Origin: Escherichia coli
GTDB lineage: Bacteria > Pseudomonadota > Gammaproteobacteria > Enterobacterales > Enterobacteriaceae
Length of the DNA stretch: 64,000 nucleotides
Assembly (NCBI RefSeq): GCF_048403405.1
Contig: NZ_CP183129.1
Reading direction: 5' to 3' (one strand)
Part shown: piece after piece, positions 1 to 25,334 of the stretch
How positions within the stretch are numbered: position 1 is the stretch's first letter
How the letters are laid out: each line of letters opens with the position of its first letter
Program-made: the position numbers and the translations under genes
The notes under the pieces: generated by a model
What the model saw: only the letters and a program-made list of their open reading frames with translations
What the model was told of the DNA's origin: nothing
Databases searched by the model: none

Positions 1-148
1 CGCCATCCTCGATGCAGAATTTGGTCTGAAAGAGAAAGGCTACACCAGTCTGGTGGTTGTTCCGGTAGGTCATCACAGCGTTGAAGATTTTAACGCTACG
101 CTGCCGAAATCTCGTCTGCCGCAAAACATCACCTTAACCGAAGTGTAA
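1..148 (+). CDS. nfsB: 3' end of oxygen-insensitive NAD(P)H nitroreductase (partial, start outside window)
   Basis: Open frame from position 2 ending TAA 146-148; translated tail ...[29 protein letters not shown] matches recalled NfsB C-terminus; synteny with ybdG/pheP. Confidence 0.85.
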
Positions 149-207
149 TTCTCTCTTGCCGGGCATCTGCCCGGCTATTTCCCCTCAGATTCTCCTGATT
201 TGCATAA

Positions 208-1503
<1,296 letters not shown>

Positions 1504-1512
1504 TTAAAAAAA

Positions 1513-1539
1513 CCGCTCTCATCGAATGGATGAGAGCGG
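1513..1539. terminator. Bidirectional rho-independent terminator hairpin between convergent ybdG and pheP
   Basis: Inverted repeat ccgctctcatcgaatggatgagagcgg flanked by A-run upstream and T-rich tract downstream. Confidence 0.6.
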
Positions 1540-1570
1540 ACATCGTTTTGTCGGATGTAGCGTGAATGCC

Positions 1571-2947
1571 TTATTTCCGACGCAGCGTTTTAAATGCCAC
1601 AAACAGGAATACAATCCACACCGGCAGCAGGATCGCTGACAAGCGCATATCATCCATCGTGCACATCAGCAGCAAAATCATGCCGAGGAAGGCAATACAA
1701 AGATAGTTGCCGAACGGATAAAGCAGCGCCTTAAACTGTGTTTCACGTCCCTGACGTCGCATCGCCGCGCGAAAACGCAGATGCGCCAGGCAGATCATAA
1801 TCCAGTTCAACAGCAGCGTTGCTACCACCAGCGCCATCAGCAGACCAAACGCTTTTTGCGGCAGCAGATAGTTGATTAACACCACCAGCGAAGTGATCGC
1901 TCCGGAAAGCATCAGCGAGTTAATCGGCACGCCGCGACGGCTGACGCGAGTCAAAAACTTCGGCGCATTACCCTGCACAGAAAGGCCAAACAGCATGCGG
2001 CTGTTAGAGTAAACCCCGCTGTTATACACTGACAGCGATGCTACCAGAATGACGAAGTTCAGCGCAGAAGCTACCACGTTGCTGTCGAGATTATGGAAAA
2101 TCATCACAAACGGGCTACTGTTGGATTTCACTTCCACCCACGGATAGAGCGCCAGTAAAACTACCAGTGAACCGATATAAAACAGCAGGATGCGATACAC
2201 TACCTGATTTACCGCTTTCGGAATGCTTTTTTCCGGATCGCGCGCTTCAGCGGCAGTAATCCCAATCAGCTCCAGACCGCCGAAGGAGAACATAATCACC
2301 GCCAGCGACAAAATCAGCCCATTCCAGCCGGTGGCAAAGAAACCACCGTAGCGCCAGAGGTTGTCGATACTGGCTTTCTCGCCGCCGTGCCCAGAAAACA
2401 GCAGCCACAGGCCAAAGCCGATCATACCGATGATCGCCAGCACTTTAATCAGCGCAAACCAGAATTCGGTTTCGCCATATAAGCGCACGTTTACCAGGTT
2501 AACGGCGTTGATGATAATAAAGAAGGCGGCAGCCCAAATCCACGTTGGAACATCCGGGAACCAGTACTGCATATAGATGCCCGCAGCGGTCAGCTCTGCC
2601 ATTCCCACCAGCACGAACATCACCCAGTAGTTCCAGCCGGAGAGGAACCCGGCGAACGGTCCCCAGTATTTATAGGCAAAGTGGGCAAATGAACCGGATA
2701 CCGGCTCTTCGACCACCATCTCGCCGAGCTGGCGCATAATCAGGAAAGCGATGATCCCGGCGACGCCGTAGCCCAGTAATACAGCCGGACCCGCCATCTG
2801 AATCGCCGGGCCAATGCCAAGAAACAGACCAGTACCAATTGCGCCACCCAGCGCAATCAGTTGAATATGACGGTTATGTAATCCGCGATGAAGCGTCGGC
2901 TCTTGATTCGACGCAGTATCTTCCGATACGGTTGACGCGTTTTTCAC
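1571..2947 (-). CDS. pheP: Phenylalanine-specific permease
   Basis: ORF 1571-2983; recalled 458-aa PheP starts MKNASTVSEDTASNQ, which corresponds to the in-frame GTG at 2945-2947. Confidence 0.9.
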   Translation of the reverse strand: MKNASTVSEDTASNQEPTLHRGLHNRHIQLIALGGAIGTGLFLGIGPAIQMAGPAVLLGYGVAGIIAFLIMRQLGEMVVEEPVSGSFAHFAYKYWGPFAGFLSGWNYWVMFVLVGMAELTAAGIYMQYWFPDVPTWIWAAAFFIIINAVNLVNVRLYGETEFWFALIKVLAIIGMIGFGLWLLFSGHGGEKASIDNLWRYGGFFATGWNGLILSLAVIMFSFGGLELIGITAAEARDPEKSIPKAVNQVVYRILLFYIGSLVVLLALYPWVEVKSNSSPFVMIFHNLDSNVVASALNFVILVASLSVYNSGVYSNSRMLFGLSVQGNAPKFLTRVSRRGVPINSLMLSGAITSLVVLINYLLPQKAFGLLMALVVATLLLNWIMICLAHLRFRAAMRRQGRETQFKALLYPFGNYLCIAFLGMILLLMCTMDDMRLSAILLPVWIVFLFVAFKTLRRK

Positions 2948-3048
2948 GCCTTTCCCCTGTGTGTCTTTTTTGTTGAGGGGCACCTTTTAACATTTAGTGC
3001 CCATCGTCGCAAGACACAATCCACACGGTTAAACCGGGTATCCTGCTT

Positions 3049-6000
3049 TTATTTCCGTACCCGATGTCGGTGCAGCCACATCAGCTTATACGCCGCCGGG
3101 ATAATAAACAGCGATAGCAAAGGCGCGGTGATCATGCCGCCAATCATCGGCGCGGCAATCCGGCTCATCACCTCTGAACCTGCTCCCGTTCCCCACAGAA
3201 TCGGCAGCAGACCGGCGATAATCACTGCCACCGTCATCGCTTTCGGGCGCACGCGCAGGACCGCGCCGTGATACAACGCCTCATCCAGCTTCTGCTCGCT
3301 GAATGTTTGCGGATTATTCAACGACGGCTCGACCTCTATGGCGTGACGTAAATACATCAGCATCACCACGCCAAATTCGGCGGCGACTCCGGCGAGGGCA
3401 ATAAAACCGGTGCCCGTCGCCACGGAAAGATGAAAGCCCATCCACCACAGCAACCAGATGCCGCCCACCAGCGCAAACGGTACGCTGCTGATAATCAGCA
3501 ACGCTTCGCCCACCCGACGGAACGCCAGATACAACAGCACGAAGATGATCATCAGCGTCATCGGCACCATGAGTTTCAGCTTATGGTTGGCGCGCTCCAG
3601 TAGCTCGAACTGCCCGGAGAATGTCACGCTGGTGCCCGGTTTTAACTGCACTTTTTCAGCTATCGCTTTTTGCAAATCGTGAACCACCGACACCATGTCA
3701 CGATCGCGGGCATCGATATAAATCCAGCTCGTCGGGCGCGCATTCTCGGTTTTCAGCATCGACGGTCCGGTAGAGACTTTAACGTCGGCCACGTCTGCCA
3801 GGGTGATTTGCTGCTTCATCGGCGTCAGGATCGGCAACTGGCGCAGTGCCTGCGGACTATTGCGCCAGCTTTGCGGATAACGCAGATTAATTGGATAACG
3901 GGCAATCCCTTCCACCGTTTCGCCAACCATCGCCCCGCCCACCGCAGAAGTCACAAACAACTGCACATCCGCCACCGTCATACCGTAACGTGCGGCTTTT
4001 TCACGGTTAATCTCAACGTTGATATAGCGCCCACCTTCCAGACGCTCGGCAAGCGCAGAAGCCACGCCTGGCACCGTTCGTGCCACCTCTTCAATTTGCT
4101 CCGCCATCGCGTCGATATCCGCCAGCACAGTGCCGGAAACTTTAATGCCGATGGGGCTCTTAATGCCGGTTGAGAGCATATCGATACGGTTACGAATTGG
4201 CGGCACCCACAGATTCGCCAGCCCCGGCAGACGCACGGTGTTATCCAGTTCCTCAATGATTTTGTCCATCGTCATGCCTGGCCGCCACTGATCTTGTGGC
4301 TTAAGCTGGATGGTCGTTTCTACCATCTCCAGCGGAGCAGAATCGGTGGCGGTTTCCGCTTTCCCGGTTTTGCCAAATACCCGCGCCACTTCAGGTACGC
4401 TCATAATCAGCTTGTCGGTTTTTTGCAGCATACTCGCCGCCTCTGCTGCGGAAATCCCCGGCAGCGTCGATGGCATATACAACAAGTCGCCTTCATTGAT
4501 CTGCGGTAAAAATTCCCCGCCAACTTTATTGAGCGGCCAGAGAACCGTCAGCACCGAAAGCGCTGCCACCAGCAGCGTGGTTTTTGGCCAGTGCAGTACT
4601 TTCAGCAACAGCGGATGATAAGCACGAATCAAAAAGCGATTGAGCGGGTTACTGCTTTCTGGCGGAATTTTGCCACGGATCCAGTAACCCATCAGGATAG
4701 GGATCACTACGATCGCCAGCAGCGCCGCACCCGCCATCGCATACGTTTTGGTGAACGCCAGCGGGCCAAACAGACGCCCTTCCTGCCCTTCCAGGGTGAA
4801 GATCGGGATAAACGACAACGTGATAATCAGCAGACTGATAAACAGCGCCGGCCCCACTTCAACAGATGCATCGGTGATCACCTGCCAGCGCGTTTTATTA
4901 TCCAGCGTGGCGTCAGGATGCTGGTGCTGCCACTCTTCCAGTCGTTTATGCGCATTCTCGATCATGACGATAGCGGCATCGACCATCGCCCCGACGGCAA
5001 TCGCAATGCCGCCCAGCGACATAATATTGGCATTCAGCCCCTGGAAGTGCATGACAATAAAAGCAATACACAACCCCAGCGGCAACGAAATAATCGCCAC
5101 CAGCGCCGAGCGCACATGCCAGAGAAACAGCGCACAGACTACCGCCACCACAATAAACTCTTCCAGCAACTTGCCGCTGAGGTTGTCGATGGCGCGGTCA
5201 ATGAGCTGGCTGCGATCGTATGTTGTAACTATCTCCACGCCTTCCGGCAGACTGCTTTTCAGCGTTTCCAGTTTGTCTTTCACGGCGGCGATCACTTCTC
5301 GGGCGTTTTTGCCGGAGCGCAGGATCACCACCCCGCCCGCCACTTCGCCTTCGCCGTTCAGTTCGGCAATGCCCCGGCGCATCTCCGGGCCAATCTGGAC
5401 CTTCGCAACATCGCGCAGATAAACGGGCACGCCATTTTCACTGGCTTTTAAAACGATGTGATTAAAGTCGTCGAGCGTTTGCAGATAGCCGCTGGCGCGC
5501 ACCATATATTCCGCTTCCGCCAGTTCGATCGACGAACCGCCCGCTTCCTGGTTTGAAGCATCCAGCGCGCTTTTTACTTCGGCGAGACTGATGCCATATT
5601 GCGCCAGGCGCTGGGGATCGATAACCACCTGATACTCTTTCACCACACCGCCCACCGACGCCACTTCCGCAACGTCAGGGATGGTTTTTAGCTCATATTT
5701 GAGAAACCAGTCCTGCAATGAGCGTAAATCGGCCAGATCGTGCTTACCGCTGCGATCCACCAGTGCATATTCATAGATCCAGCCAACACCCGTGGCATCT
5801 GGCCCCAGCTCAGCGCTGACTCCCGCAGGCAGCTTACCCTGTACCTGGTTGAGGTACTCCAGCACCCGCGAGCGCGCCCAGTATGGATCGGTGCCATCTT
5901 CGAAAATGACATACACATAAGAGTCGCCAAACTGCGAGAAACCGCGCACAGTCTTCGCGCCAGGCACCGACAACATAGTGGTGGTTAGCGGATAAGTCAC

Positions 6001-6192
6001 CTGATTTTCAACGATTTGCGGTGCCTGACCGGGATAGCTGGTTTTAATAATCACCTGCACATCAGAGAGATCCGGCAGTGCATCCACTGGCGTGTTAATG
6101 ATGGTCCAGGTGCCCCAGATACTCAGAAACAACGCGCCCATCAGCACCAGAAAACGGTTCGCCACCGAGCGACGAATAATCCATTCAATCAT
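3049..6192 (-). CDS. cusA: RND copper/silver efflux pump, inner membrane transporter CusA
   Basis: 1047-aa ORF, RND transporter; synteny cusCFBA. Confidence 0.95.
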
Positions 6193-6203
6193 TGGTTATT
6201 CCC

Positions 6204-7427
6204 TCAATGCGCATGGGTAGCACTTTCAGAGCGCATCCGCTCCAGTGCGCCAGAAATATTGGCTTCGGAATCAATCAGGAACAGGCCGCTGGAAACCACC
6301 TTTTCACCTTCCGCCAGACCAGAGCGTAATGCGGTGACGCCTTGCGATGCCTGGAAAACGGCAACGCGTTTCGGTACAAAGCGCCCGTCGGCATCAACGG
6401 TAATCACCCGCTGTTCGCTGCCGGTATCAATCAGCGCTTGTGACGGAATGAGCAGCATCGGTTCGCTGGCGGTGTTGAGTTGCAACCAGGCGTTCATTCC
6501 CGGCTTTAGCGCCTCGTCGGTGTTGTCGACTTCCAGGCGCAGCTGCAGCGTGCGGGTTGCGGCATCCACGCCGGGTAGCAGCGTCCATTTGCGGATGGTG
6601 AGTGTTTTATCAGGTCGTGCCGGAACGGTGAGCGTAAACTGCGAGGCATCTTTCACCAGCCAGGCGATGGACTCCGGGATCGCGGCAGTGATCCACACCG
6701 GATCCATACCCTGAATTTTCGCGACCACGTTATCTTTGGCGATATTCATTCCCGCGCGCAGATCAAACGCGGTGATCACGCCATCAATGGGCGCTTTGAG
6801 CGTAAAGCGAGTCTGGATTTTTTGCGTGGCGATCAGGCGGCGAATATCCGCCTCCGGCATTCCCGCCAGTCTCAGCCGCTCAAGAATGCCTTCAGTCTGG
6901 GTCGCCGTACCGCCAGTTTCGCGCAGCAGTAAATACTCACTCTGCGCTTCCACCCAGTCGGGAATGGTCAGGTCGAGAAGCGGCGCGCCCTTTTGTACTT
7001 TATCGCCCACGGTAAGCGGATACACCTTGTCGATAAACCCGGCGGCGCGGGCCTGCACAATGGCATACTGATACTCGTTGTAACTGACATTCGCCGGGAA
7101 ACTTTGGGCAAAAGTCAGCGGCCCGCGCGTGACGGTCGCCGTTTTCACCCCCAGATTCTGCGTCTGAGTCGGGTCAATGCGCACACCAGACGCAGAACTC
7201 TCTTCATCGGCATATTTCGGCACCAGATCCATATCCATAAACGGCGATTTACCTGGTTTATCGAACCGCGTATTGGGATACATCGGGTCGTACCAGAATA
7301 AGATTTTACGTTCTGCGGTCGACGTTTTTTCTGCGGGCGGTTCCGCCTTTGCAAACCAGGTAAAACCTGCCGCAGAAATAATACCGCCCGCGATCATGCT
7401 GCCGATAATAAGCGCGATTTTTTTCAT
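6204..7427 (-). CDS. cusB: Copper/silver efflux membrane fusion protein CusB
   Basis: 407-aa ORF with signal/TM N-terminus; position between cusF and cusA. Confidence 0.95.
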   Translation of the reverse strand: MKKIALIIGSMIAGGIISAAGFTWFAKAEPPAEKTSTAERKILFWYDPMYPNTRFDKPGKSPFMDMDLVPKYADEESSASGVRIDPTQTQNLGVKTATVTRGPLTFAQSFPANVSYNEYQYAIVQARAAGFIDKVYPLTVGDKVQKGAPLLDLTIPDWVEAQSEYLLLRETGGTATQTEGILERLRLAGMPEADIRRLIATQKIQTRFTLKAPIDGVITAFDLRAGMNIAKDNVVAKIQGMDPVWITAAIPESIAWLVKDASQFTLTVPARPDKTLTIRKWTLLPGVDAATRTLQLRLEVDNTDEALKPGMNAWLQLNTASEPMLLIPSQALIDTGSEQRVITVDADGRFVPKRVAVFQASQGVTALRSGLAEGEKVVSSGLFLIDSEANISGALERMRSESATHAH

Positions 7428-7442
7428 CTCATTAAACCTGGG

Positions 7443-7775
7443 TTACTGGCTGACTTTAATATCCTGTAATAAAGAAAGGTTGCCCTGCTGGACAAAATTA
7501 AACGCCACTTTGTCGCCGGTTTTTATTTCGCCCATCTTCGTCTGCGGGGTGATGGTAAAGCGCATGGTCATCTCCGGCCAGTTCACGGCAGCAATCGGAT
7601 CGTGATGGATAGTGATTTTTTTGCTTTCCAGATCAATACCTTTTACCACCCCTGTGGCACTAATGACCTGCGGTTGTGCTTCGCTCATGGTTTCATGATG
7701 ATGTTCGTTAGCCTGGGCATTAAAGCCAATAACGGTAAACAGACTGAACATTGCGACTTGCAGTGCTTTTTTCAT
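7443..7775 (-). CDS. cusF: Periplasmic copper/silver chaperone CusF
   Basis: 110-aa ORF, signal peptide MKKALQVAMFSLFTVIGFNAQA. Confidence 0.95.
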   Translation of the reverse strand: MKKALQVAMFSLFTVIGFNAQANEHHHETMSEAQPQVISATGVVKGIDLESKKITIHHDPIAAVNWPEMTMRFTITPQTKMGEIKTGDKVAFNFVQQGNLSLLQDIKVSQ

Positions 7776-7798
7776 TTATTCTCTCCTGGAGTTAAAAA

Positions 7799-9175
7799 TT
7801 ATTGCTGCCAACCGCCACCAAGTGCGGTATATAAAGAAATTTCGTTAACCTGACGGGCATAATTCAGGTCAAGTAAAGTTTGTCGGGTTGCAAATAAAGA
7901 ACGTTCGGCATCCAGCACTTCCAGATAACTGACTGCGCCGTGCTGATATAATGCCCGCGCCCGTTGCAAAGTAATTTGCAGCGATGCCAGATAACGCTGC
8001 TGGGCGCTAATTTGATCGTTCAGGCTTTGACGTAATGCCAGCGCATCTGCCACTTCTTTAAAGGCATTCTGGATTTTCTGTTCATAATTCACCACCGACT
8101 GCTGCTGGCGAATTTCGGCGATATCCAGATTGGCCTGGTTGCGTCCGGCATTAAAAATGGGGATCTCAATTTTGGGAATAAAATTCCACATCCCGCTGCT
8201 GGCGTTAAATAAGGACGACAGATCGCTGCTGGCGGTCGATATTCCGCTGGTCAGACTGATAGACGGGAAAAATGCCGCGCGTGCAGCGCCAATATTGGCA
8301 TTAGCCGCCATCAACGCGTGTTCAGCTTCCATAATATCCGGGCGCTGCAATAAGATTTGCGACGACAAGCCCGCCGGTAATTTAACGCTTTGCAGGCTGT
8401 CGCTGTTTACTGTTTGCGCTTGCGGCAGCTTGCCGTAGCTTCCCAGCAACAGTTGCAATGCATTATTCGCCTGCGCCAGTTCCCCCTGACGTTTAGCGAT
8501 GTCGCTGCGGGTACTTTCTATCACCCCGCGAGCCTGTTCCAGCGCCAGAACATTGCTGCTACCGGTCAACAGTTGTTTTTCGACAAACGCATATGACTGC
8601 TGATAATTACGCAGCGTTTCTTCGGCTATTTGCAATTGCGCATACGCCAGTTGCTGATTGAAATAGCTTTGCGCGACATTAGAAACCAGCAGAATATGCA
8701 CCGCGCGCTGGGCTTCCTCAGTGGCTAAATAATTTTGGCGCTCGGCTTCGCTCATGTTCTTTAAGCGACCGAAAAAATCGAGATCAAAGCTGGCGTTAAG
8801 GCCGGTCGAAAACTCCCGTGTCGTGGCGGTATTCCCTTTAAGATTACCGCTCCAGCTGCCGCTGCCCTCGCCATTGAGCTGTGGGTAGCGGTCGGCATCG
8901 GTCAGACGATATTGCGCCCGTGCCTCCTGCACTTTCAGCGTCGCCATGCGCAAATCCCGGTTATTCACCAGCGCCTCGCTAATCAGCGTCTTCACCTGAT
9001 TATCAATAAAAAAGGTGCGCCAGCCCGCGTTCTGGTAGTTATCTGCTGCGTTAACCAGGCCGTTCTGGCTGAGTGAGAACTGCTTCGGTACGGGCATTGC
9101 CGGACGCTGATAATCCGGTGCCAATGAACAACCGGTTAGCGCAAGGGCCACACAAAATGGCAGAAGTTTAGGCAC
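7799..9175 (-). CDS. cusC: Outer membrane factor CusC, 5' end and promoter replaced by IS26
   Basis: 458-aa ORF whose first codon (GTG, complement of 9173-9175) lies inside the IS26 terminal repeat; recalled native N-terminus MSPCKLLPFCV is here (V/M)PKLLPFCV. Confidence 0.85.
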   Translation of the reverse strand: MPKLLPFCVALALTGCSLAPDYQRPAMPVPKQFSLSQNGLVNAADNYQNAGWRTFFIDNQVKTLISEALVNNRDLRMATLKVQEARAQYRLTDADRYPQLNGEGSGSWSGNLKGNTATTREFSTGLNASFDLDFFGRLKNMSEAERQNYLATEEAQRAVHILLVSNVAQSYFNQQLAYAQLQIAEETLRNYQQSYAFVEKQLLTGSSNVLALEQARGVIESTRSDIAKRQGELAQANNALQLLLGSYGKLPQAQTVNSDSLQSVKLPAGLSSQILLQRPDIMEAEHALMAANANIGAARAAFFPSISLTSGISTASSDLSSLFNASSGMWNFIPKIEIPIFNAGRNQANLDIAEIRQQQSVVNYEQKIQNAFKEVADALALRQSLNDQISAQQRYLASLQITLQRARALYQHGAVSYLEVLDAERSLFATRQTLLDLNYARQVNEISLYTALGGGWQQ

Positions 9176-9990
9176 TGTTGCAAATAGTCGGTGGTGATAA
9201 ACTTATCATCCCCTTTTGCTGATGGAGCTGCACATGAACCCATTCAAAGGCCGGCATTTTCAGCGTGACATCATTCTGTGGGCCGTACGCTGGTACTGCA
9301 AATACGGCATCAGTTACCATGAGCTGCAGGAGATGCTGGCTGAACGCGGAGTGAATGTCGATCACTCCACGATTTACCGCTGGGTTCAGCGTTATGCGCC
9401 TGAAATGGAAAAACGGCTGCGCTGGTACTGGCGTAACCCTTCCGATCTTTGCCCGTGGCACATGGATGAAACCTACGTGAAGGTCAATGGCCGCTGGGCG
9501 TATCTGTACCGGGCCGTCGACAGCCGGGGCCGCACTGTCGATTTTTATCTCTCCTCCCGTCGTAACAGCAAAGCTGCATACCGGTTTCTGGGTAAAATCC
9601 TCAACAACGTGAAGAAGTGGCAGATCCCACGATTCATCAACACGGATAAAGCGCCCGCCTATGGTCGCGCGCTTGCTCTGCTCAAACGCGAAGGCCGGTG
9701 CCCGTCTGACGTTGAACACCGACAGATTAAGTACCGGAACAACGTGATTGAATGCGATCATGGCAAACTGAAACGGATAATCAACGCCACGCTGGGATTT
9801 AAATCCATGAAGACGGCTTACGCCACCATCAAAGGTATTGAGGTGATGCGTGCACTACGCAAAGGCCAGGCCTCAGCATTTTATTATGGTGATCCCCTGG
9901 GCGAAATGCGCCTGGTAAGCAGAGTTTTTGAAATGTAAGGCCTTTGAATAAGACAAAAGGCTGCCTCATCGCTAACTTTGCAACAGTGCC
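9171..9990 (+). mobile_element. IS26 (IS6 family), copy 1, 820 bp
   Basis: 14-bp terminal inverted repeats GGCACTGTTGCAAA at 9171-9184 and complement at 9977-9990; internal tnp26 ORF. Confidence 0.95.
9234..9938 (+). CDS. tnpA: IS26 transposase Tnp26 (R29H variant)
   Basis: 234-aa protein MNPFKGRHFQRDIILWAVRWYCKYGISY(H)ELQ... matches recalled Tnp26; codon 29 is CAT here and CGT in copy 2. Confidence 0.95.
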   Translation: MNPFKGRHFQRDIILWAVRWYCKYGISYHELQEMLAERGVNVDHSTIYRWVQRYAPEMEKRLRWYWRNPSDLCPWHMDETYVKVNGRWAYLYRAVDSRGRTVDFYLSSRRNSKAAYRFLGKILNNVKKWQIPRFINTDKAPAYGRALALLKREGRCPSDVEHRQIKYRNNVIECDHGKLKRIINATLGFKSMKTAYATIKGIEVMRALRKGQASAFYYGDPLGEMRLVSRVFEM

Positions 9991-10439
9991 AATTTTACGC
10001 CGTCGGCGGTACGCAGCCAGCGCGGGGATTTGAGTCCTTCCGTGAAATTCCAGACCAGCTCACACAGCAGCCCGGTCAGGGTTTGCTCCATTTTTGGTTC
10101 CGCCGGACGTTCCAGCAGAAGCTGGAGTAGTGCGAGGCAGTATTCGCACAAGGAATCAGGTTCGGAAATAAAGTGCTCTGGTGTGGCGGGAAGGGTATCC
10201 ACGGTCAGGCTTTCGGTAAGATGCGGTGGGATGGGGTCGTGTAGTGTGGGTTGCAGTAGCGCAAGAGCCGCGTGAAGCCGCCCGCAGAGCGCCAGTCGTA
10301 GCGCTGGATCGTCGGTTTCAATCAGGGTTTCGGCAAAGCGGGCGCAGTAGTCAGCAAGGACAGTGAAATCCGTGGTGGCATTGAAGGGGACGGTCAATAG
10401 ATCGAGTAAATCGCTGTCAGTGGTGAGGATTGTAGCCAT
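9972..10439 (-). CDS. Hypothetical protein, 3' end truncated by IS26 (last ~5 codons and stop supplied by IS26)
   Basis: 155-aa ORF with GGAGG 8 nt upstream of ATG; acidic, Leu-rich product; reading frame runs into the IS26 end at 9990. Confidence 0.5.
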   Translation of the reverse strand: MATILTTDSDLLDLLTVPFNATTDFTVLADYCARFAETLIETDDPALRLALCGRLHAALALLQPTLHDPIPPHLTESLTVDTLPATPEHFISEPDSLCEYCLALLQLLLERPAEPKMEQTLTGLLCELVWNFTEGLKSPRWLRTADGVKLALLQS

Positions 10440-10785
10440 AGGGCAACCTCCGATAAGTGGGTGTTCAAGCCACCACCGGAGAGGCTAATCTCGCGGGTGG
10501 TGGAACCGGGCAGGGTTAGCCTTACCAGCCTTATCGGACACTGGCGCGTCTTGCGACGCCCCCGCCCGGCCCACCATTGAGATGTAACCGTGCGAACAAC
10601 ACAAAAAAAGACGCTGGCGCGTCATGTGTCGCCGATAAGATTTCTTCAGGAGGCTAATCCCGACGCCTGATTTTGCAGGCGCGGGAGAAAGATACTGCGA
10701 TTGGTCATGAGTGGCAAGGGCTACATCATGTTTACCGACATCTCACGCAAAAATACCCTGATTATTAATAGCGAAAATCAGTTTC
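10440..10785 (-). other. GC-rich, repeat-rich non-coding region downstream of the RT gene; candidate structured ncRNA
   Basis: No ORF of 60 aa or more; hairpin ccaccacc/ggtggtgg (10481-10503); inverted pair ccgataag/cttatcgg (10451-10458, 10530-10537); direct repeats gaggctaatc (10490-10499 and 10651-10660) and ctggcgcgtc (10541-10550 and 10611-10620). Confidence 0.3.
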
Positions 10786-13700
10786 TTATTTTGGCGGTAG
10801 CTTTTTGCGGTTCTTTGCCAACTGGAATCCTTCAGGTAACGGTTTGAATTTATCGCCGCCTTTAGGCCAGCGTTTTGCCCTGCTCTGAAATGCCCTTAAC
10901 GAGTCGATATCCAGCGTTGCAGCGACCACAAAGTCATTATCACCGCCCTTCACACGAGCAATATCACGCATAAAGGGTTCTTTTGCCGGGGAACGTACGC
11001 GACTATCGCCGTATTTTCGGTTATTCACTAAAATAGTATAGGCATGAATATCCAGCGCTGCTGATTCAATCAACGATGCAAACGTATCTAGATCTTTATT
11101 CCAGCTCAATACCATTAATGCATCGAGTGCGCCCTGAAAACGGATCCTCGCTTTACTATTCTGGAGTTCAGAGCAAATCATAACGCCAAAATTGACGCCG
11201 TGATGAATATATACCGGCTTACGTTGTTTAACATTAAGTGTCGAATCCCAAGACTTACCATAAGTTGAAAATAATGCCTCATCTTCACCTACGGCGGGTT
11301 CCAGCTTGGGTTGCCATATTTTGACACTCGCTGGATAGCCGAGTCTGTTATCTGAAAGGACAAGTACGGCCTCACTCTTCAGTTGATTATCGTCTAAGTG
11401 GCGGTATTCTGTTCCCGCAATTAGACTGATACCCGCCGAACTCAAACGATCAGCAATACTGTTAACCCAGCGTAACGGGATTGAAAGCTCAGGGAATAAA
11501 ACATAATCAGGTTTAGGAGATAGTTTCAATGTTGCATTAACCAGTTCAGAAATCCGCTGGTACCTTGAACGGGACAAGTTAGATTTATTGCAGGCCATTT
11601 TAGCCCAGTCGTCCTCCTCTGTTTTAATGCTGGTTAGCGCAACGACAACTTTATGTTTCCTGTCTGTGCCAATATGAATGAATTTCTTAGGCCGAGCTTT
11701 TTTTGTCGCTTCATCTGAGTCCTGCTCCGATGCTAGCAACGTCGGTTTGATCCATACTCCGCGTAATGCTTGAGTATATTTTGCCCAAATGGTGGACGGT
11801 CTCTCATCTGGTTTTTTGTCGGATGTGGAGGGTAATCCAACACATTCGGGGGCCAGTTCTGATATTTCAGCGGGTGTTAAAGGACGTGTAGGGAAAATGT
11901 AAGGTAGGTAACTTTCGTTTTTACGATTTCCTTTAGCCACTTTTTCCAGTCGGGTATTCTTGGTTGATTTCAAAAATAGCTTAATAACGTCAATATCAAT
12001 AAGCGATGAGTCGCTCATTAATTTCAGTATTTTAACTTCTTTTTTACTATCACGCTGATTAACAAGTTTTTCTGCCGACTGACTCTTTACGATCTGTTTA
12101 TAAGGTTCCTTTGCTAAATCAGCTCGAGCTACCAATGGCGCTTTTAAATAAAAATCTGCTGAATCAAAGCGAAGATCCAGTAAATCCTTTAGATTCGTCA
12201 GACTTTGTGAAATATGATTAAAAAATGTATCCGCAAGGCACTCTTCTTTCTTTGAACGTTTATCAAGAAATAATCTGTCAGGACTGTAATATCGTGTCGC
12301 TGCATCAACAAATAGCCAGCTTAATGTGCCTTTTATACAGCGCCAAAGATCATTTACTGCTCGAGTTTTGCAACCATTTATATTCACTTCCTTACCTGAA
12401 GTAATCACCGATGCCAACAGGTTGATGGATTCGTAAGCTTTAAGTACAATTTTTTCCGCGTGCTGCCATTCATTCATACTGATAGCAAAGCCAAGCAGCC
12501 TTGGCAGATAACTAAAATGTGCAAATAGATTATCAGCCCTAAGAATATGGTTGTAGGCAAACTGATAAAACTCTTCCCGCTGTTCTTTCCATTCACTTGG
12601 AGGCAGATCTCGTGCCAGTGTTTCAACGTAGCGTAATTGCAGTGACCAGCCCAAACGACGAATGGTTAATCCATCCGCACGGCGCAGAGTATCGGCATTT
12701 TCACCTACACTACCGGCAGCGGAAAGGACTTTAGCTGCGGTGGAGTGTTCCAGTTGATCCGGTGAAGGCATCAAGCGGTGTTCACTAGAAAGCTCGTAGA
12801 TCTCCTTTTCGATACTGTCGAGCAGGTCTATTCCAGCCCTCCCTTGAAGCACGAAAAGTTTTTGCTTATCGGATTGTAACTGGATGGTGGTCTTACCCTG
12901 GAAATGCTCGCCCTGCTGTATTTGCCATATTTGTTTTTGCTCGTTTTTCAAATAAACGCAATCATTGCCAAGCCTATCTTGCAGCAATAACATAAATTCG
13001 TGATTATTAGTAATTGTCCCTGTATCGCGTATTACAAGGAACATATCATCGACATAACGACCGTAGTGAATTGGTGATAGTTTTTCAATGACTAATTTAT
13101 CCCAATGGTGTAGCAATATATTTGAAATGATCCGACTGGCTGTTAATCCAATGACCAGACCACCATTAATAACAGGTGTTTTGTACGCTATTTTCTTTCC
13201 AAATGCCGCTGCGCCGTCAGACCAGTGCTTTAAGAATACTGCTAACTGTGCAGTAAACGCTTTTTCATCCTCAGTCAGTTTTATGTTTAGTGTGTTATAG
13301 AGATCATCAGAGGTTATAGCCAGTGGATCAATAAAATGATAGTAACTTTTTAAATCCAGTGAGGCGGCGATAATGTCACGATCTTTTTCCAACTCGTCAC
13401 GTATAGCTTTTAAGCCATCACCACGCCATTTTTGGTAGGGCTGGAAGTAGGGGCTAAAAGAACCCACGGCACTGATATGGAATGGATTATCCTGCTCATT
13501 GCTAAATAATTCATCATTACGAATACGCTTTAGCCGCGCGCCATAGCAACAGTTATCTAAGCTGGCATCAAATTTATGCCCGACCATGTTAATCCATAGT
13601 GCAGAGATAATGTGACTATCAACCGGGAAGTCACCAATAATACGAAACTCTGGTATCAGATCAAAATTATTAAATAAATGGTCGGCTGCTCGTTTAGGAT

Positions 13701-13995
13701 TAGAAAAGTGGACGTGTCCATTTTGGGATTCATGTTTTTTCTTTGTGGTTAATTTTTTCGGTAACAAACGAAATTTGCCAATCAACTTCTTATTGCTACT
13801 GAATCCATCTTCGCTCTGCAAAAGATCTAAGAGTTTTTGCAGGTTTTCAAGTAATTCCTGCTCATACTCGGCAAATTTGATAGCAACAGGAAATGTATTC
13901 TCAAAGAAGCTATCGGCTTTTGCTTTCCGGTAAGCGACCAGAAGGTCTTCAATCGTCAGATCATCCCAGCCAGTGAAAATTGCCTGATATGTCAT
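10786..13995 (-). CDS. Defence-associated reverse transcriptase fused to C-terminal nitrilase (CN-hydrolase) domain, DRT type 1-like (UG1-like)
   Basis: 1069-aa ORF with AAGGA RBS; RT motifs LDLKSYYHFID, GGLVIGLTASRIISNILL, YVDD (complement of 13045-13056); nitrilase triad context FPELS, VKIWQPK, GVMICSEL (Cys codon complement of 11173-11175). Confidence 0.75.
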   Translation of the reverse strand: MTYQAIFTGWDDLTIEDLLVAYRKAKADSFFENTFPVAIKFAEYEQELLENLQKLLDLLQSEDGFSSNKKLIGKFRLLPKKLTTKKKHESQNGHVHFSNPKRAADHLFNNFDLIPEFRIIGDFPVDSHIISALWINMVGHKFDASLDNCCYGARLKRIRNDELFSNEQDNPFHISAVGSFSPYFQPYQKWRGDGLKAIRDELEKDRDIIAASLDLKSYYHFIDPLAITSDDLYNTLNIKLTEDEKAFTAQLAVFLKHWSDGAAAFGKKIAYKTPVINGGLVIGLTASRIISNILLHHWDKLVIEKLSPIHYGRYVDDMFLVIRDTGTITNNHEFMLLLQDRLGNDCVYLKNEQKQIWQIQQGEHFQGKTTIQLQSDKQKLFVLQGRAGIDLLDSIEKEIYELSSEHRLMPSPDQLEHSTAAKVLSAAGSVGENADTLRRADGLTIRRLGWSLQLRYVETLARDLPPSEWKEQREEFYQFAYNHILRADNLFAHFSYLPRLLGFAISMNEWQHAEKIVLKAYESINLLASVITSGKEVNINGCKTRAVNDLWRCIKGTLSWLFVDAATRYYSPDRLFLDKRSKKEECLADTFFNHISQSLTNLKDLLDLRFDSADFYLKAPLVARADLAKEPYKQIVKSQSAEKLVNQRDSKKEVKILKLMSDSSLIDIDVIKLFLKSTKNTRLEKVAKGNRKNESYLPYIFPTRPLTPAEISELAPECVGLPSTSDKKPDERPSTIWAKYTQALRGVWIKPTLLASEQDSDEATKKARPKKFIHIGTDRKHKVVVALTSIKTEEDDWAKMACNKSNLSRSRYQRISELVNATLKLSPKPDYVLFPELSIPLRWVNSIADRLSSAGISLIAGTEYRHLDDNQLKSEAVLVLSDNRLGYPASVKIWQPKLEPAVGEDEALFSTYGKSWDSTLNVKQRKPVYIHHGVNFGVMICSELQNSKARIRFQGALDALMVLSWNKDLDTFASLIESAALDIHAYTILVNNRKYGDSRVRSPAKEPFMRDIARVKGGDNDFVVAATLDIDSLRAFQSRAKRWPKGGDKFKPLPEGFQLAKNRKKLPPK

Positions 13996-14289
13996 GCGTT
14001 ATCGTCCTTAGATTACAGTCTGTACAGAATTAGCCAGCCGTTTCATGCCCGAAGGGGGGCTCTTGACACCAGTAATCCATCAGTGAGGCTGGCAATAATT
14101 TTGATTTGTATCCATGTTACACGCTCCCCGCAACCAGTCCGAGCATATATTTGTCACATTTTTCCCGAAAGTGATTAAGTTTGAATTTTTTGTTTAATGT
14201 CGATTTTTAGTCGACAAAATGAGGAATAAGTAAACTATTTCTTGCTGTGGCGTATCCCTGAATCTACACTGGTTTAAATATTTGTACTA
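13996..14289. promoter_or_regulatory. Divergent promoter region between RT gene and abiEi, with palindrome gtcgatttttagtcgac (14200-14216)
   Basis: AT-rich 294-bp spacer between divergently oriented genes; inverted repeat is a candidate AbiEi operator. Confidence 0.35.
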
Positions 14290-15093
14290 ATGTCTATTCA
14301 GAGGCGACAGTTGCCAAACTATCTAAACTGGCTGATGCAGCACACGCTACCCGGCCAGGTGCTGCTCCAGTCATGGCTTACCCGCAACGGCATAGATCGT
14401 AAGCTCTCTTATCTCTATGTGAAGAATGGCTGGCTCAGGCGGATCGCTCACGGCGTATACTGCCGGACGGGCCGTGAGCCGGATTGGGTAGACGCGGTTT
14501 ACTGCCTTCAAACACAGTGGGAAAAGCCTGTTCGGGTGGCGGGGCTAACCAGCCTTGCGCTTCAGGGCCATGCGCACTATACCGAACCGGGTAAGCCGCA
14601 GGTCTGGCTCGCGCTTCCGGCTTACGTTAAGCTGCCGGGATGGTTTGCTGCCTTCGAACAATCTGCAACATTTATCACGCTGTATACATCGGGGCTTACC
14701 GTAGATGTAACGTCATTGACTACGGAACTGAAAATTGGCGACCGCCAGTTAGCAGGCAGTGCCCCGGAACTGGCCGCGTATGAGATCGCCTGCGGCGTTC
14801 CTTCGTTGATATCGTTCGAACATGCCGATGCTCTGTTTCAGGGGATGAATCTTCTCAGCCCACGCAAATTGCAGGCACTGCTTCGCGCCAGCCATTCGGT
14901 TAAAACCAACCGGGTGATGCTTTACCTTGCCCGGCGTAATGGACACCCTTATTTTCAGTATATTGATCAAAGCGGTATAGAAACAGGTACGGGAAAGCGG
15001 CAAATCATACCCGGCGGCTGGCTGGAGCCGGATTATCAAATTACTGTTCCACGCGCATTTAAACCGGAAGGAGTCGAAGATGGATCTGCGTGA
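14290..15093 (+). CDS. abiEi: AbiEi-family antitoxin/transcriptional regulator (type IV TA / abortive infection)
   Basis: 267-aa ORF, N-terminal motif ...GWLRRIAHGVY typical of AbiEi; overlaps downstream AbiEii gene by 14 nt. Confidence 0.7.
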   Translation: MSIQRRQLPNYLNWLMQHTLPGQVLLQSWLTRNGIDRKLSYLYVKNGWLRRIAHGVYCRTGREPDWVDAVYCLQTQWEKPVRVAGLTSLALQGHAHYTEPGKPQVWLALPAYVKLPGWFAAFEQSATFITLYTSGLTVDVTSLTTELKIGDRQLAGSAPELAAYEIACGVPSLISFEHADALFQGMNLLSPRKLQALLRASHSVKTNRVMLYLARRNGHPYFQYIDQSGIETGTGKRQIIPGGWLEPDYQITVPRAFKPEGVEDGSA

Positions 15094-16000
15094 TAGCTAT
15101 GCCCGGCAGGTCAAACTGTTGATGGCCGCTCTGCCGTATGTGGCGAAGGAGTCCTGTTTCGCGTTGAAAGGCGGCACCGCAATCAATTTGTTTGTGCAGG
15201 ATTTTCCCCGTCTGTCGGTGGATATTGATCTGGCGTACAAGAGCTTTGCGGATCGCGATACTGATTTGGCGGCTATCAACGACGCTTTGAAGAGGATTAC
15301 TGCATCGCTGAACGGCAGACCGGGGATCACCGCGATTCGGCAGGAAAATAAAGCGGATGAAAAGCGCATCATTGTGAATACCGCTGATGCAAAGATTAAG
15401 ATCGAGGTTAGCCCGGTCTGGCGCGGGCTGTTGTTGCCTCCGGCAGAAATGCCTGTGTGCGAACGTGTGGAAATGGAGTATGGCTTCACCACCATGAGTG
15501 TCGTCTCGCTGGCGGATCTTTATGGCGGTAAAATCTGCGCTGCGCTTGATCGTCAGCACCCGCGCGATCTGTTTGATGTGCTGAATATGCTGGAGAAACC
15601 GGGACTGATGCGGGAGATCTTTGACGGTTTTCTTTGTTATCTGGCAGGCCATCCCCGCCCCATCGCCGAGTTGCTGGCTCCAAACTGGGATACAGAGCGG
15701 ATCGCCACGTTGTACGCGCAGGAATTTTCGGGGATGACTCAGCAGGAAACGTCGCTGGAATCGCTGCTGTCAGTAACGACTTTGCTGCCGCAGGCGTTGA
15801 AGTCACATCTTACGGATCTGGATCGCGAGTTCTTGCTCAGTTTTAAGCAAAACAGCCCTGACTGGTCGCGGTATCGCTATCCTGAAATTCAGCATCTTCC
15901 GGCTATTCGCTGGAAGCAACGTAATCTGGCGGTGCTGAAAGATAAAAATCCGGCGAAGTATGTGGCGGCGGTGAATAAGCTAGAGAGGGTGCTGGCGTAA
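15080..16000 (+). CDS. abiEii: AbiEii/AbiGii-family nucleotidyltransferase toxin
   Basis: 306-aa ORF with SD GGAAGGA; motif ALKGGTAINLF...RLSVDIDLAY characteristic of AbiEii (DUF1814). Confidence 0.75.
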   Translation: MDLRDSYARQVKLLMAALPYVAKESCFALKGGTAINLFVQDFPRLSVDIDLAYKSFADRDTDLAAINDALKRITASLNGRPGITAIRQENKADEKRIIVNTADAKIKIEVSPVWRGLLLPPAEMPVCERVEMEYGFTTMSVVSLADLYGGKICAALDRQHPRDLFDVLNMLEKPGLMREIFDGFLCYLAGHPRPIAELLAPNWDTERIATLYAQEFSGMTQQETSLESLLSVTTLLPQALKSHLTDLDREFLLSFKQNSPDWSRYRYPEIQHLPAIRWKQRNLAVLKDKNPAKYVAAVNKLERVLA

Positions 16001-16364
16001 TCAATAGACCAGCATTAATCACGGATGATTACCAATCAGACAGATATGGTTAAATCATCGAATTCATAATTAATACTTTTTCTTACGCCGCTGAACAGCT
16101 TGAAAAGGATACATATTTTAAATATCAGTGAAGTGGACAGTTTATTGCCGTTATTAATAGAGATGGAGGAATAAATACGCGTATTCTACTATTGCAACAA
16201 AAACAACGATGATGATCAGTTTTCATAATGAAGTAACCTGACAGATATAAAAATGTTGATTGAGGCTCAATGCCCGGATGAAGGTTGTCGAGGGAGCCAG
16301 GTGGTTTTTTCTTTTGGGTGATCTCCATTGCTGGATAGTCCCCTCTTTCTCGCTCAAAGCAGAC

Positions 16365-16689
16365 TGTACTGCACCCATTTTGTTGGACGATGAAATGGAA
16401 TAGCCCCTAATATGTCAAAGCCAAAATACCCTTTTGAAAAGCGCCTTGAAGTCGTGAATCACTACTTCACAACTGATGATGGTTACAGGATCATCTCGGC
16501 ACGTTTTGGTGTCCCCCGAACCCAGGTCAGGACATGGGTTGCCCTCTATGAAAAACATGGAGAAAAAGGTTTAATTCCCAAACCTAAAGGCGTTAGTGCT
16601 GATCCAGAGTTGCGTATTAAGGTCGTGAAAGCTGTGATCGAGCAGCACATGTCCCTTAATCAGGCTGCTGCTCACTTTATGCTTGCTGG
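16365..16689 (+). mobile_element. IS150 (IS3 family) left-end fragment, truncated by IS26
   Basis: Begins TGTACTGCACCCATTTTGTTGGACG; encodes the N-terminal ~90 aa of InsJ/OrfA (MSKPKYPFEKRLEVVNHYFTTDDGYRIISARFGVP...) ending at the IS26 boundary. Confidence 0.8.
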
Positions 16690-17509
16690 GGCACTGTTGC
16701 AAATAGTCGGTGGTGATAAACTTATCATCCCCTTTTGCTGATGGAGCTGCACATGAACCCATTCAAAGGCCGGCATTTTCAGCGTGACATCATTCTGTGG
16801 GCCGTACGCTGGTACTGCAAATACGGCATCAGTTACCGTGAGCTGCAGGAGATGCTGGCTGAACGCGGAGTGAATGTCGATCACTCCACGATTTACCGCT
16901 GGGTTCAGCGTTATGCGCCTGAAATGGAAAAACGGCTGCGCTGGTACTGGCGTAACCCTTCCGATCTTTGCCCGTGGCACATGGATGAAACCTACGTGAA
17001 GGTCAATGGCCGCTGGGCGTATCTGTACCGGGCCGTCGACAGCCGGGGCCGCACTGTCGATTTTTATCTCTCCTCCCGTCGTAACAGCAAAGCTGCATAC
17101 CGGTTTCTGGGTAAAATCCTCAACAACGTGAAGAAGTGGCAGATCCCACGATTCATCAACACGGATAAAGCGCCCGCCTATGGTCGCGCGCTTGCTCTGC
17201 TCAAACGCGAAGGCCGGTGCCCGTCTGACGTTGAACACCGACAGATTAAGTACCGGAACAACGTGATTGAATGCGATCATGGCAAACTGAAACGGATAAT
17301 CAACGCCACGCTGGGATTTAAATCCATGAAGACGGCTTACGCCACCATCAAAGGTATTGAGGTGATGCGTGCACTACGCAAAGGCCAGGCCTCAGCATTT
17401 TATTATGGTGATCCCCTGGGCGAAATGCGCCTGGTAAGCAGAGTTTTTGAAATGTAAGGCCTTTGAATAAGACAAAAGGCTGCCTCATCGCTAACTTTGC
17501 AACAGTGCC
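16690..17509 (+). mobile_element. IS26, copy 2, 820 bp, same orientation as copy 1
   Basis: Terminal repeats GGCACTGTTGCAAA at 16690-16703 and complement at 17496-17509. Confidence 0.95.
16753..17457 (+). CDS. tnpA: IS26 transposase Tnp26
   Basis: 234-aa protein matching recalled Tnp26 (R29). Confidence 0.95.
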   Translation: MNPFKGRHFQRDIILWAVRWYCKYGISYRELQEMLAERGVNVDHSTIYRWVQRYAPEMEKRLRWYWRNPSDLCPWHMDETYVKVNGRWAYLYRAVDSRGRTVDFYLSSRRNSKAAYRFLGKILNNVKKWQIPRFINTDKAPAYGRALALLKREGRCPSDVEHRQIKYRNNVIECDHGKLKRIINATLGFKSMKTAYATIKGIEVMRALRKGQASAFYYGDPLGEMRLVSRVFEM

Positions 17510-19543
17510 AAACCGTTAGCGATTATGGTTCCGGCGTGGAATGAAACGGGCGTCATCGGCAATATGGCCGAGCTGGCGGCGACCACGCTCGACTATGAAA
17601 ACTATCATATCTTTGTTGGCACCTACCCCAACGACCCCGATACACAGCGTGATGTTGACGAAGTGTGCGCTCGCTTCCCGAACGTGCATAAGGTAGTCTG
17701 CGCGCGTCCTGGCCCCACCAGCAAAGCCGACTGCCTGAACAACGTGCTGGACGCCATCACCCAGTTTGAGCGTAGCGCCAATTTCGCTTTTGCTGGTTTT
17801 ATTCTGCATGACGCCGAAGACGTAATTTCACCGATGGAATTGCGTCTGTTCAACTATCTGGTCGAGCGTAAAGATCTGATTCAGATCCCGGTGTATCCGT
17901 TCGAACGCGAATGGACGCACTTCACCAGCATGACTTACATTGATGAGTTTTCAGAACTGCATGGCAAAGATGTTCCGGTGCGTGAAGCCCTCGCCGGACA
18001 AGTGCCCAGCGCAGGCGTCGGTACCTGTTTCAGCCGCCGCGCCGTGACCGCACTGTTAGCTGACGGTGACGGTATTGCTTTCGACGTGCAGAGTCTTACT
18101 GAAGATTACGACATTGGTTTCCGCCTGAAAGAAAAAGGTATGACGGAAATTTTTGTCCGTTTTCCGGTGGTGGACGAAGCCAAAGAACGCGAGCAGCGTA
18201 AATTTTTACAGCACGCGCGGACGTCAAACATGATCTGCATGCGCGAATATTTCCCTGATACCTTTTCGACTGCGGTTCGACAAAAATCTCGCTGGATCAT
18301 CGGCATTGTTTTCCAGGGCTTTAAAACCCACAAATGGACCTCCAGCCTGACGCTGAACTACTTTCTCTGGCGCGACCGCAAAGGGGCAATCAGTAACTTT
18401 GTCAGCTTTCTCGCGATGCTGGTGATGATCCAGCTTCTGCTGTTACTGGCGTATGAAAGTTTGTGGCCCGATGCCTGGCATTTCCTTTCTATTTTCAGCG
18501 GCAGCGCATGGTTAATGACCCTGCTGTGGCTAAACTTTGGTTTGATGGTTAACCGCATCGTGCAGCGGGTGATTTTTGTCACTGGCTACTACGGTCTGAC
18601 GCAGGGGCTGCTATCTGTCCTGCGTCTTTTCTGGGGCAACCTGATTAACTTCATGGCCAACTGGCGCGCGTTAAAACAGGTACTTCAACACGGCGATCCA
18701 CGTCGTGTCGCGTGGGATAAAACAACGCATGACTTCCCCAGCGTGACTGGCGATACCCGCTCGTTGCGCCCGTTAGGCCAAATTCTGCTGGAAAATCAGG
18801 TCATCACTGAAGAACAACTCGATACAGCACTGCGTAATCGCGTCGAAGGTCTACGCCTGGGCGGTTCAATGCTGATGCAGGGGCTGATTAGCGCCGAACA
18901 GCTGGCACAGGCGCTGGCAGAGCAAAACGGCGTGGCGTGGGAATCCATCGACGCCTGGCAGATCCCGTCCTCGCTGATTGCCGAAATGCCGGCCTCCGTG
19001 GCGCTGCATTATGCAGTGCTGCCGCTGCGTCTGGAAAATGATGAGTTAATTGTCGGCAGTGAAGATGGTATTGACCCGGTTTCGCTGGCGGCCCTGACGC
19101 GTAAAGTCGGACGCAAAGTGCGTTACGTCATTGTTCTGCGGGGACAAATTGTCACGGGGTTACGTCACTGGTATGCACGCCGACGCGGTCACGATCCGCG
19201 GGCAATGTTGTACAATGCGATTCAGCATCAGTGGCTCACGGAACAGCAGGCCGGTGAAATCTGGCGGCAATATGTGCCGCATCAGTTCCTGTTCGCCGAA
19301 ATACTGACCACGCTCGGTCATATTAATCGTTCAGCAATTAACGTGTTGTTATTGCGCCATGAACGCAGTTCTCTGCCGCTCGGCAAGTTTTTGGTCACCG
19401 AAGGCGTTATCAGCCAGGAAACGTTGGATCGCGTCCTGACAATTCAACGCGAATTACAAGTTTCGATGCAATCACTATTACTCAAAGCAGGTTTAAACAC
19501 AGAACAGGTTGCGCAACTGGAGTCCGAAAATGAAGGAGAATAA
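17510..19543 (+). pseudogene. nfrB: nfrB (c-di-GMP-controlled glycosyltransferase, phage N4 adsorption protein B), 5'-truncated by IS26
   Basis: Native reading frame begins directly at the IS26 right end (KPLAIMVPAWNETGVIGN...); ~70 N-terminal codons of the recalled 745-aa NfrB are missing; longest ORF 17525-19543. Confidence 0.85.
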
Positions 19544-23575: not shown

Positions 23576-24337
23576 ATGCAATTGAGCAGCAGTGAACCTT
23601 GCGTGGTGATCCTGACCGAAAAAGAGGTAGAGGTAAGCGTCAATAACCATGCTACGTTTACCCTTCCGAAAAACTACCTGGCCGCCTTCGCGTGCAACAA
23701 TAACGTCATTGAACTCTCAACGTTAAATCACGTATTAATCACCCACATCAACCGTAACATCATCAACGATTATCTGTTGTTTTTAAATAAGAACTTAACC
23801 TGTGTAAAGCCCTGGTCGCGGCTGGCTACCCCGGTTATCGCTTGTCATAGCCGTACACCGGAAGTGTTCCGGCTAGCCGCCAACCACAGCAAGCAGCAAC
23901 CCAGCAAACCCTGCGAAGCGGAGTTGACGCGCGCATTGCTTTTTACCGTATTGTCTAACTTTCTTGAGCAATCGCGGTTTATTGCCCTACTGATGTATAT
24001 CTTACGCAGCAGCGTCCGCGACAGCGTCTGCCGCATTATTCAAAGCGATATTCAGCATTACTGGAATCTGCGAATTGTCGCCAGTTCGCTATGTTTAAGC
24101 CCCAGCCTGCTCAAAAAGAAATTAAAAAACGAAAATACCAGCTATAGCCAGATTGTCACAGAGTGTCGTATGCGTTACGCCGTACAGATGTTATTGATGG
24201 ATAACAAAAATATCACTCAGGTAGCGCAATTATGTGGCTATAGCAGCACGTCGTACTTTATCTCTGTTTTTAAGGCGTTTTACGGCCTGACACCGTTGAA
24301 TTATCTCGCCAAACAGCGACAAAAAGTGATGTGGTGA
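23576..24337 (+). CDS. envY: AraC-family porin thermoregulator EnvY
   Basis: 253-aa ORF with C-terminal AraC HTH; synteny. Confidence 0.85.
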   Translation: MQLSSSEPCVVILTEKEVEVSVNNHATFTLPKNYLAAFACNNNVIELSTLNHVLITHINRNIINDYLLFLNKNLTCVKPWSRLATPVIACHSRTPEVFRLAANHSKQQPSKPCEAELTRALLFTVLSNFLEQSRFIALLMYILRSSVRDSVCRIIQSDIQHYWNLRIVASSLCLSPSLLKKKLKNENTSYSQIVTECRMRYAVQMLLMDNKNITQVAQLCGYSSTSYFISVFKAFYGLTPLNYLAKQRQKVMW

Positions 24338-24382
24338 AGGGCAAAGCGGAAACGGATAGGACGGGGATAAATGAAGAAGAAA

Positions 24383-24459
24383 TGGCGCGCCCTGCAGGAT
24401 TCGAACCTGCGGCCCACGACTTAGAAGGTCGTTGCTCTATCCAACTGAGCTAAGGGCGC
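24383..24459 (-). tRNA. argU: tRNA-Arg (anticodon UCU)
   Basis: Reverse complement reads GCGCCCTTAGCTCAGTTGGATAGAGCAACGACCTTCTAAGTCGTGGGCCGCAGGTTCGAATCCTGCAGGGCGCGCCA, 77 nt with CCA end. Confidence 0.95.
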
Positions 24460-24701
24460 GTTGATACCGCAATGCGGTGTAATCGCGTGAATTATACGGT
24501 CAACCCTTGCTGAGTCAATGGCTTTTGATCTGGTTGCTGAACAAGTGAACGACCGCGTCTGATTTTCTGATTTATTTCGCTATAGCGGCAAACAAACGTA
24601 CACCGCTGCGCGTCTGAATCAAGAAAACCCGTATTTTCATGTATCAAAGTACAATTTCCCGCCCTAACGGAAAATTGTCCGATCCTATGAGACTGGTAAC
24701 T

Positions 24702-25334
24702 ATGAAACCAACGTCGGTGATCATTATGGATACTCATCCTATCATCAGAATGTCTATTGAAGTTCTGTTGCAAAAAAACAGTGAATTGCAAATTGTCCTG
24801 AAAACGGATGATTATCGCATAACCATCGATTATCTCCGAACCCGTCCTGTTGATTTAATCATTATGGATATAGACTTGCCCGGTACAGACGGTTTTACCT
24901 TCCTGAAAAGGATCAAACAAATCCAGAGTACAGTGAAAGTATTATTTTTATCATCGAAATCAGAATGCTTTTATGCTGGCAGAGCGATACAAGCTGGTGC
25001 TAACGGCTTTGTCAGTAAATGCAATGATCAGAATGATATTTTTCATGCCGTTCAGATGATCCTCTCCGGATACACTTTTTTTCCCAGCGAAACGCTCAAC
25101 TATATAAAAAGCAATAAATGTAGCACGAATAGTTCAACGATCACTGTGCTATCTAATCGTGAAGTGACCATATTACGTTATCTGGTTAGCGGATTATCCA
25201 ATAAAGAAATTGCCGATAAGTTATTACTTAGCAATAAAACAGTTAGTGCGCATAAATCTAATATTTATGGCAAGCTAGGTTTGCATTCAATTGTAGAGCT
25301 TATCGACTATGCCAAATTATATGAATTAATATAA
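24702..25334 (+). CDS. fimZ: LuxR-family response regulator FimZ
   Basis: 210-aa protein from MKPTSVIIMDTHPIIRMSIEVLL; receiver plus LuxR HTH. Confidence 0.9.
   Translation: MKPTSVIIMDTHPIIRMSIEVLLQKNSELQIVLKTDDYRITIDYLRTRPVDLIIMDIDLPGTDGFTFLKRIKQIQSTVKVLFLSSKSECFYAGRAIQAGANGFVSKCNDQNDIFHAVQMILSGYTFFPSETLNYIKSNKCSTNSSTITVLSNREVTILRYLVSGLSNKEIADKLLLSNKTVSAHKSNIYGKLGLHSIVELIDYAKLYELI

Follow-up and report, generated by a model that had tools for sequence, protein, structure and literature searches.

Bacteriophages with a tyrosine integrase recombine at a core sequence that is common to them and to the 3'-terminal part of a tRNA gene; the tRNA gene is regenerated at attL, and a partial copy of it comes to lie at attR. 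For argU of Escherichia coli, Ramisetty and Sudhakari described DLP12 as integrated at the 3' end of the gene, gave a 47-bp attR copy for the opposite end of the prophage, and compared DLP12-carrying strains with strains that lack it (PMC6379469); the original description is that of Lindsey et al., as cited in PMC6379469. Additionally, the genome paper of strain SE11 lists a lambda-like prophage of 50 kb that occupies argU, where 47 nt are duplicated (PMC2608844). Both the 47-bp att duplication at argU and strains that carry or lack DLP12 are known, having already been published. The present analysis concerns the argU locus of the window, by which we mean the whole 64,000-nt stretch of E. coli DNA analyzed here, and compares it with these systems and with complete E. 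coli genomes.

The envY-argU junction and its att core

ARAGORN detected a single tRNA gene in the window, a tRNA-Arg with anticodon tct on the minus strand, and the Rfam tRNA model agreed with this call. The gene is intact and identical to K-12 argU at all 77 nucleotides, the encoded CCA included. Convergent with it lies a 253-amino-acid ORF named envY at the matching position of genome GN02461. On the other side of argU, a promoter-like site is followed by fimZ and then by the sfm fimbrial cluster; the GN02461 annotation of the matching region lists envY, tRNA-Arg, and fimZ only. The features of the junction are the following.

23576 to 24337, plus strand: envY, AraC-family regulator, convergent with argU (ORF list, GN02461 annotation, ~99% DNA identity to K-12 envY)
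24338 to 24382, no strand assigned: 45-bp gap from the envY stop to the argU 3' end, right-hand flank of the assigned attB (colinearity with K-12)
24381 to 24427, minus strand: 47-bp att core, formed by the 3'-terminal 45 nt of argU and TT (exact 47-mer, single copy in the window)
24383 to 24459, minus strand: argU, tRNA-Arg(UCU), intact, encoded CCA (ARAGORN; Rfam RF00005, 72.1 bits; 77/77 identity to K-12)
24491 to 24518, minus strand: sigma-70 promoter-like site upstream of argU, TTGACT, 16-nt spacer, TATAAT (consensus scan, 11/12)
24702 to 25334, plus strand: fimZ, left-hand (sfm fimbrial cluster) side of the assigned attB (NCBIfam FimZ equivalog, 446 bits; GN02461 annotation)

The envY stop (24337) and the argU 3' end (24383) are separated by exactly 45 bp, and neither an integrase nor a phage remnant was found in this gap (24338-24382), as the original prediction had it. 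The promoter-like site of argU is a candidate based on a consensus match only, and its sequence is kept in the K-12 attL. A consensus scan found no intrinsic-terminator-like hairpin between the two convergent genes (24338-24382).

As the K-12 reference, we used the region from sfm to ybcH of substrain AG100, where argU is directly followed by intD, then by lambdoid remnants, appY, and ompT, and then by envY. The last 45 nt of argU are the longest portion of the gene to recur in this region and, together with the next two bases, form an exact 47-bp repeat. The two copies of this core are 18,944 bp apart, one within argU (attL) and the other (attR) on the far side of ompT, 45 bp away from the envY stop, so that they bracket intD and the phage genes through appY and ompT. 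Because the attR core lies beyond ompT and so close to envY, appY and ompT are cargo at the right end of the element. This placement corrects the original prediction, which had both genes between the prophage and envY; they are instead part of the att-bounded element. The other part of that claim, the absence of both genes from the locus, stands, and given their position within the element, this absence and that of the prophage are one event.

This anatomy of K-12, with attL in argU and attR by envY, fits the scheme of integration at a tRNA core exactly. DLP12-type phages integrate by tyrosine-integrase recombination across the 47-bp core formed by the last 45 nt of argU and two further nucleotides. 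Such an event keeps argU intact at attL and leaves a partial copy of the gene at attR, beside envY. The window shows the state that precedes integration or follows excision.

The comparison of the K-12 argU-intD and envY-ompT junctions with the window, suggested at the outset as a check, gave a clear outcome. When the 18,944-bp interval was taken out of the K-12 sequence, the remainder aligned with the window without gaps over 1,247 bp, with 14 mismatches. Within this alignment, the 45-bp gap at 24338-24382 is colinear with the 45 bp adjoining the K-12 attR core on its envY side, with three substitutions and no indels. The junction is thus what K-12 would have if all DNA between its two 47-bp cores were lost, which bears out the prediction of an unoccupied site, and the window sequence is the exact empty-site configuration.

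Searches of the window for traces of an element were negative throughout. The exact 47-mer occurs once, at 24381-24427, and no second, att-like copy was found in a fuzzy search of the whole 64 kb on both strands that allowed up to 8 substitutions; shorter 3' substrings of the core are likewise single in the window. No part of the K-12 DLP12 element gave a blastn match in the 64-kb window. By tblastn, neither OmpT nor IntD had a match in the window better than E = 2, and the sole match of AppY was envY, its AraC-family paralogue. Thus, the signs named beforehand as speaking against an empty site, that is, a repeat of the argU 3' end, integrase fragments, or a nearby ompT in another orientation, were all absent from the window, and the locus is ompT-negative, as had been expected. 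Since an intact argU holds the only core, no element is present, and its cargo, appY and ompT, is also missing. We therefore regard the envY-argU junction as, almost certainly, an unoccupied attB for argU-targeting DLP12-type lambdoid phages. Judging from the identity of its core to both attL and attR of K-12, the site should still be able to take a phage. An empty argU would offer lambdoid phages an open landing pad. Beyond the description of the strain, the finding is of little import.

The empty site and ompT across E. coli

Occupancy was assessed with a query of 2 kb across the junction, requiring one contiguous place with at least 80% coverage. By this measure, envY-argU-fimZ is uninterrupted in 2,446 of 5,426 complete E. 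coli genomes (~45%). The empty argU site is an ordinary, common polymorphism that has already been described.

The companion question concerns ompT. OmpT matters for protein-expression hosts. PCR panels that screen extraintestinal E. coli for virulence factors also include its gene as a marker (PMC2947995). We searched with a concatenated query made of the 1.4-kb junction and 450 bp of K-12 ompT and counted the places per record. It is important to consider that this megablast is an indirect test, which sees matches of ~85% identity or more and misses omptins below that level. Among the 60 best-matching empty-site genomes, K-12-type ompT was found nowhere else on the chromosome, each having one place. 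Genomes GN02461, TUM14771, TUM1226, OX030728, 4621, and MS 69-1 match the window at 99.9 to 100% over the 1.4-kb junction and have no chromosomal ompT by this test. A second sample of 60 records, spaced evenly down the whole ranking, was distributed as follows.

Empty site, no second (ompT) place on the chromosome: 23 of 60
Empty site and a second (ompT) place: 4 of 60
ompT beside envY, K-12-like: 17 of 60
Best place is ompT, with no envY/fimZ match there: 12 of 60
Other (truncated junction, or the fimZ/argU side only): 4 of 60

Among the empty-site genomes of this even sample, 23 of 27 thus have no ompT fragment elsewhere on the chromosome, and 4 of 27 do. The latter (H95, H99, H100, and H102) have chromosomes of ~5.4 Mb, and three of the four come from cattle. 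As a genome of the same series shows one place for the junction alone, the extra place in these four must be the ompT fragment.

The records whose best place is ompT point to a different state of the locus. In Ecol_AZ153 (NZ_CP019000.1), the order is ybcH, ompT, a methyltransferase gene, a tail-fiber fragment, an integrase fragment, argU, and folD, so that a decayed remnant of ~3 kb, with ompT retained, lies between ybcH and argU; envY and the whole sfm/fimZ cluster are absent from this genome. The other 11 sampled genomes of this class probably carry the same reduced argU element of ~3 kb. The ompT of the Ecol_AZ153-type remnant looks like domesticated prophage cargo.

These results indicate that, across E. 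coli, ompT closely follows the argU element and that chromosomes with an empty argU site usually lack the gene. Together with appY, ompT is cargo of an argU-integrated element and hence absent from the locus wherever the site is empty. The closest genomes point to a source strain free of ompT in its whole genome, or at any rate on its chromosome. On the other side, an ompT could be present at another position of the source genome or be plasmid-borne, as the 4 of 27 sampled empty-site genomes with ompT at another chromosomal place and the plasmid copies in the collection illustrate. The query of junction plus ompT had 27 plasmid places in the collection, and no omptin was found in the first 50 kb of one GN02461 plasmid.

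Origin of the empty site

A never-occupied site and a cleanly excised one cannot be distinguished from the sequence, and the history of the locus can be discussed in terms of likelihood. The strongest of the alternatives is that this lineage once carried an element at the site, which was later restored to attB, either by precise Int/Xis excision or by homologous replacement with an empty-site allele. Precise excision would leave exactly the sequence observed, and at argU the DLP12-type element is both old and widely distributed, with ompT beside envY in 17 of the 60 sampled genomes. Furthermore, an ancient gain followed by losses is conceivable, as a B2-type genome keeps a decayed remnant of ~3 kb between argU and ybcH. 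However, a secondary loss leaves no mark that would set it apart from a site never occupied, and nothing in the window is specific to it. The K-12 element is defective, and the 45% of genomes with an empty site are as easily explained by repeated gains. On this balance, we consider a past occupation possible but unlikely. If the site had been restored by excision, a DLP12-type element that is defective elsewhere would still have been excision-proficient in the ancestor of the lineage.

A related, wider reading concerns the lineage as a whole. The genomes closest to the window were obtained from human samples; for GN02461, the sample was blood. The source strain may belong to a clinical E. coli clade that is entirely without the omptin protease OmpT because its argU was never colonised or was cleanly cured; we put this forward as a doubtful, tentative proposal.

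The two other readings fare far worse. In an assembly artifact, a prophage would be present, and its two 47-bp repeats would have been collapsed, joining envY to argU. Repeats can indeed misjoin short-read assemblies, but a 47-bp repeat is shorter than a normal read, and a collapse would leave the prophage as a separate contig instead of giving a clean junction. In addition, the window equals GN02461 at 99.99% over 27.9 kb spanning the junction, and the same junction occurs in the 2,446 complete genomes, six of them at 99.9 to 100% over its 1.4 kb. Assembly collapse is accordingly rejected, given the exact core-to-core junction and its recurrence in thousands of complete genomes, and we hold it to be extremely improbable.

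An IS-mediated deletion of the ompT region is known from E. coli B strains. A non-integrase deletion of this kind, removing the prophage with appY and ompT, might be considered here, as IS26 copies in the same window removed the stretch from cusRS through the 5' end of nfrB; yet there is no IS at the junction, the 47-bp core itself marks the end points exactly, a single core being kept and both flanks being intact, and an illegitimate deletion would not restore attB so precisely, so that the gapless core-to-core reconstruction from K-12 effectively refutes this explanation and leaves it with a negligible probability.

The IS26-bracketed region and known argU systems

The window is identical to GN02461 at 99.99 to 100% over 1-9170 and 17510-64000 and differs from it between these two segments. 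Two direct copies of IS26 (IS6 family), at 9171-9990 and 16690-17509, flank a 6.4-kb block there. On the minus strand at 10786-13995, this block encodes a 1,069-amino-acid UG5 reverse transcriptase-nitrilase of the DRT defense type (PADLOC DRT model, 1,034 bits), followed by AbiEi (14290-15093) and AbiEii (15080-16000). A 326-bp fragment after the block matches the IS150 region of GN02461 and plasmid places annotated as IS150. In the window, the block replaces cusRS, a T6SS vgrG/Rhs island, ISAs1, and the 5' end of nfrB. The arrangement occurs in no complete E. coli genome of the collection, and this IS26-bracketed anti-phage block (9171-17509) is more unusual than the empty argU site.

The same DRT/AbiE genes have other locations in related genomes. 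In GN02461, they lie beside thrW, ~313 kb from argU, and in the other closest genomes they are also found elsewhere on the chromosome. MS 69-1 carries the block on its chromosome and again on its "plasmid unnamed3" (NZ_CP146678.1; 64,057 bp), which is typed as non-mobilizable. The latter record also holds chromosomal neighbors (a LysR regulator, an MFS transporter, and paoD) together with phage tail and pinE genes, and it may be a chromosome-derived circle or a phage-plasmid.

The insertion also affects its neighbors. The right-hand IS26 truncates the 5' end of nfrB (17510-19543), whose ORF begins at position 68 of the 723-position NfrB profile. NfrB acts with NfrA in the adsorption of phage N4, and the strain may be N4 resistant through this truncation. 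The loss of cusRS would remove copper/silver sensing for the retained cusCFBA. At the right end of the window (~60360-64000), a gene for an RHS element core protein runs off the edge, beside ylbG (a pseudogene) and mnmH, according to colinearity with GN02461. GN02461 has a second Rhs/T6SS island, between cusS and nfrB, that is missing from the window.

Compared with the described systems, the locus shares with K-12 argU::DLP12 the gene order on both sides (nfrB-nfrA-ybcH-envY on one, argU-fimZ-sfm on the other), the 47-bp core, an identical argU, and the 45-bp envY-proximal flank. The difference lies between the cores: 18.9 kb with intD, lambdoid remnants, emrE, rusA, bor, appY, and ompT in K-12 AG100, and nothing, with one core, in the window. 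PP_SE11-1 of strain SE11 and Sp8 of O157 Sakai use the same argU target and show the same 47-nt duplication (PMC2608844), but both are 50-kb prophages, whereas the window is without a prophage. The B2-type remnant of Ecol_AZ153 has argU and the ybcH-nfrA-nfrB flank in common with the window. In contrast to the window, which has envY and sfm/fimZ and neither a remnant nor ompT, Ecol_AZ153 lacks envY and sfm/fimZ and has an integrase fragment, a tail-fiber fragment, a methyltransferase gene, and ompT between argU and ybcH. The closest counterparts are the empty-site genomes GN02461, MS 69-1, and TUM14771, which show the same envY-tRNA-Arg-fimZ order at 99.9 to 100% identity over 1.4 kb and no chromosomal ompT; at argU, they do not differ from the window, and only the IS26-bracketed region at 9171-17509 sets them apart from it.
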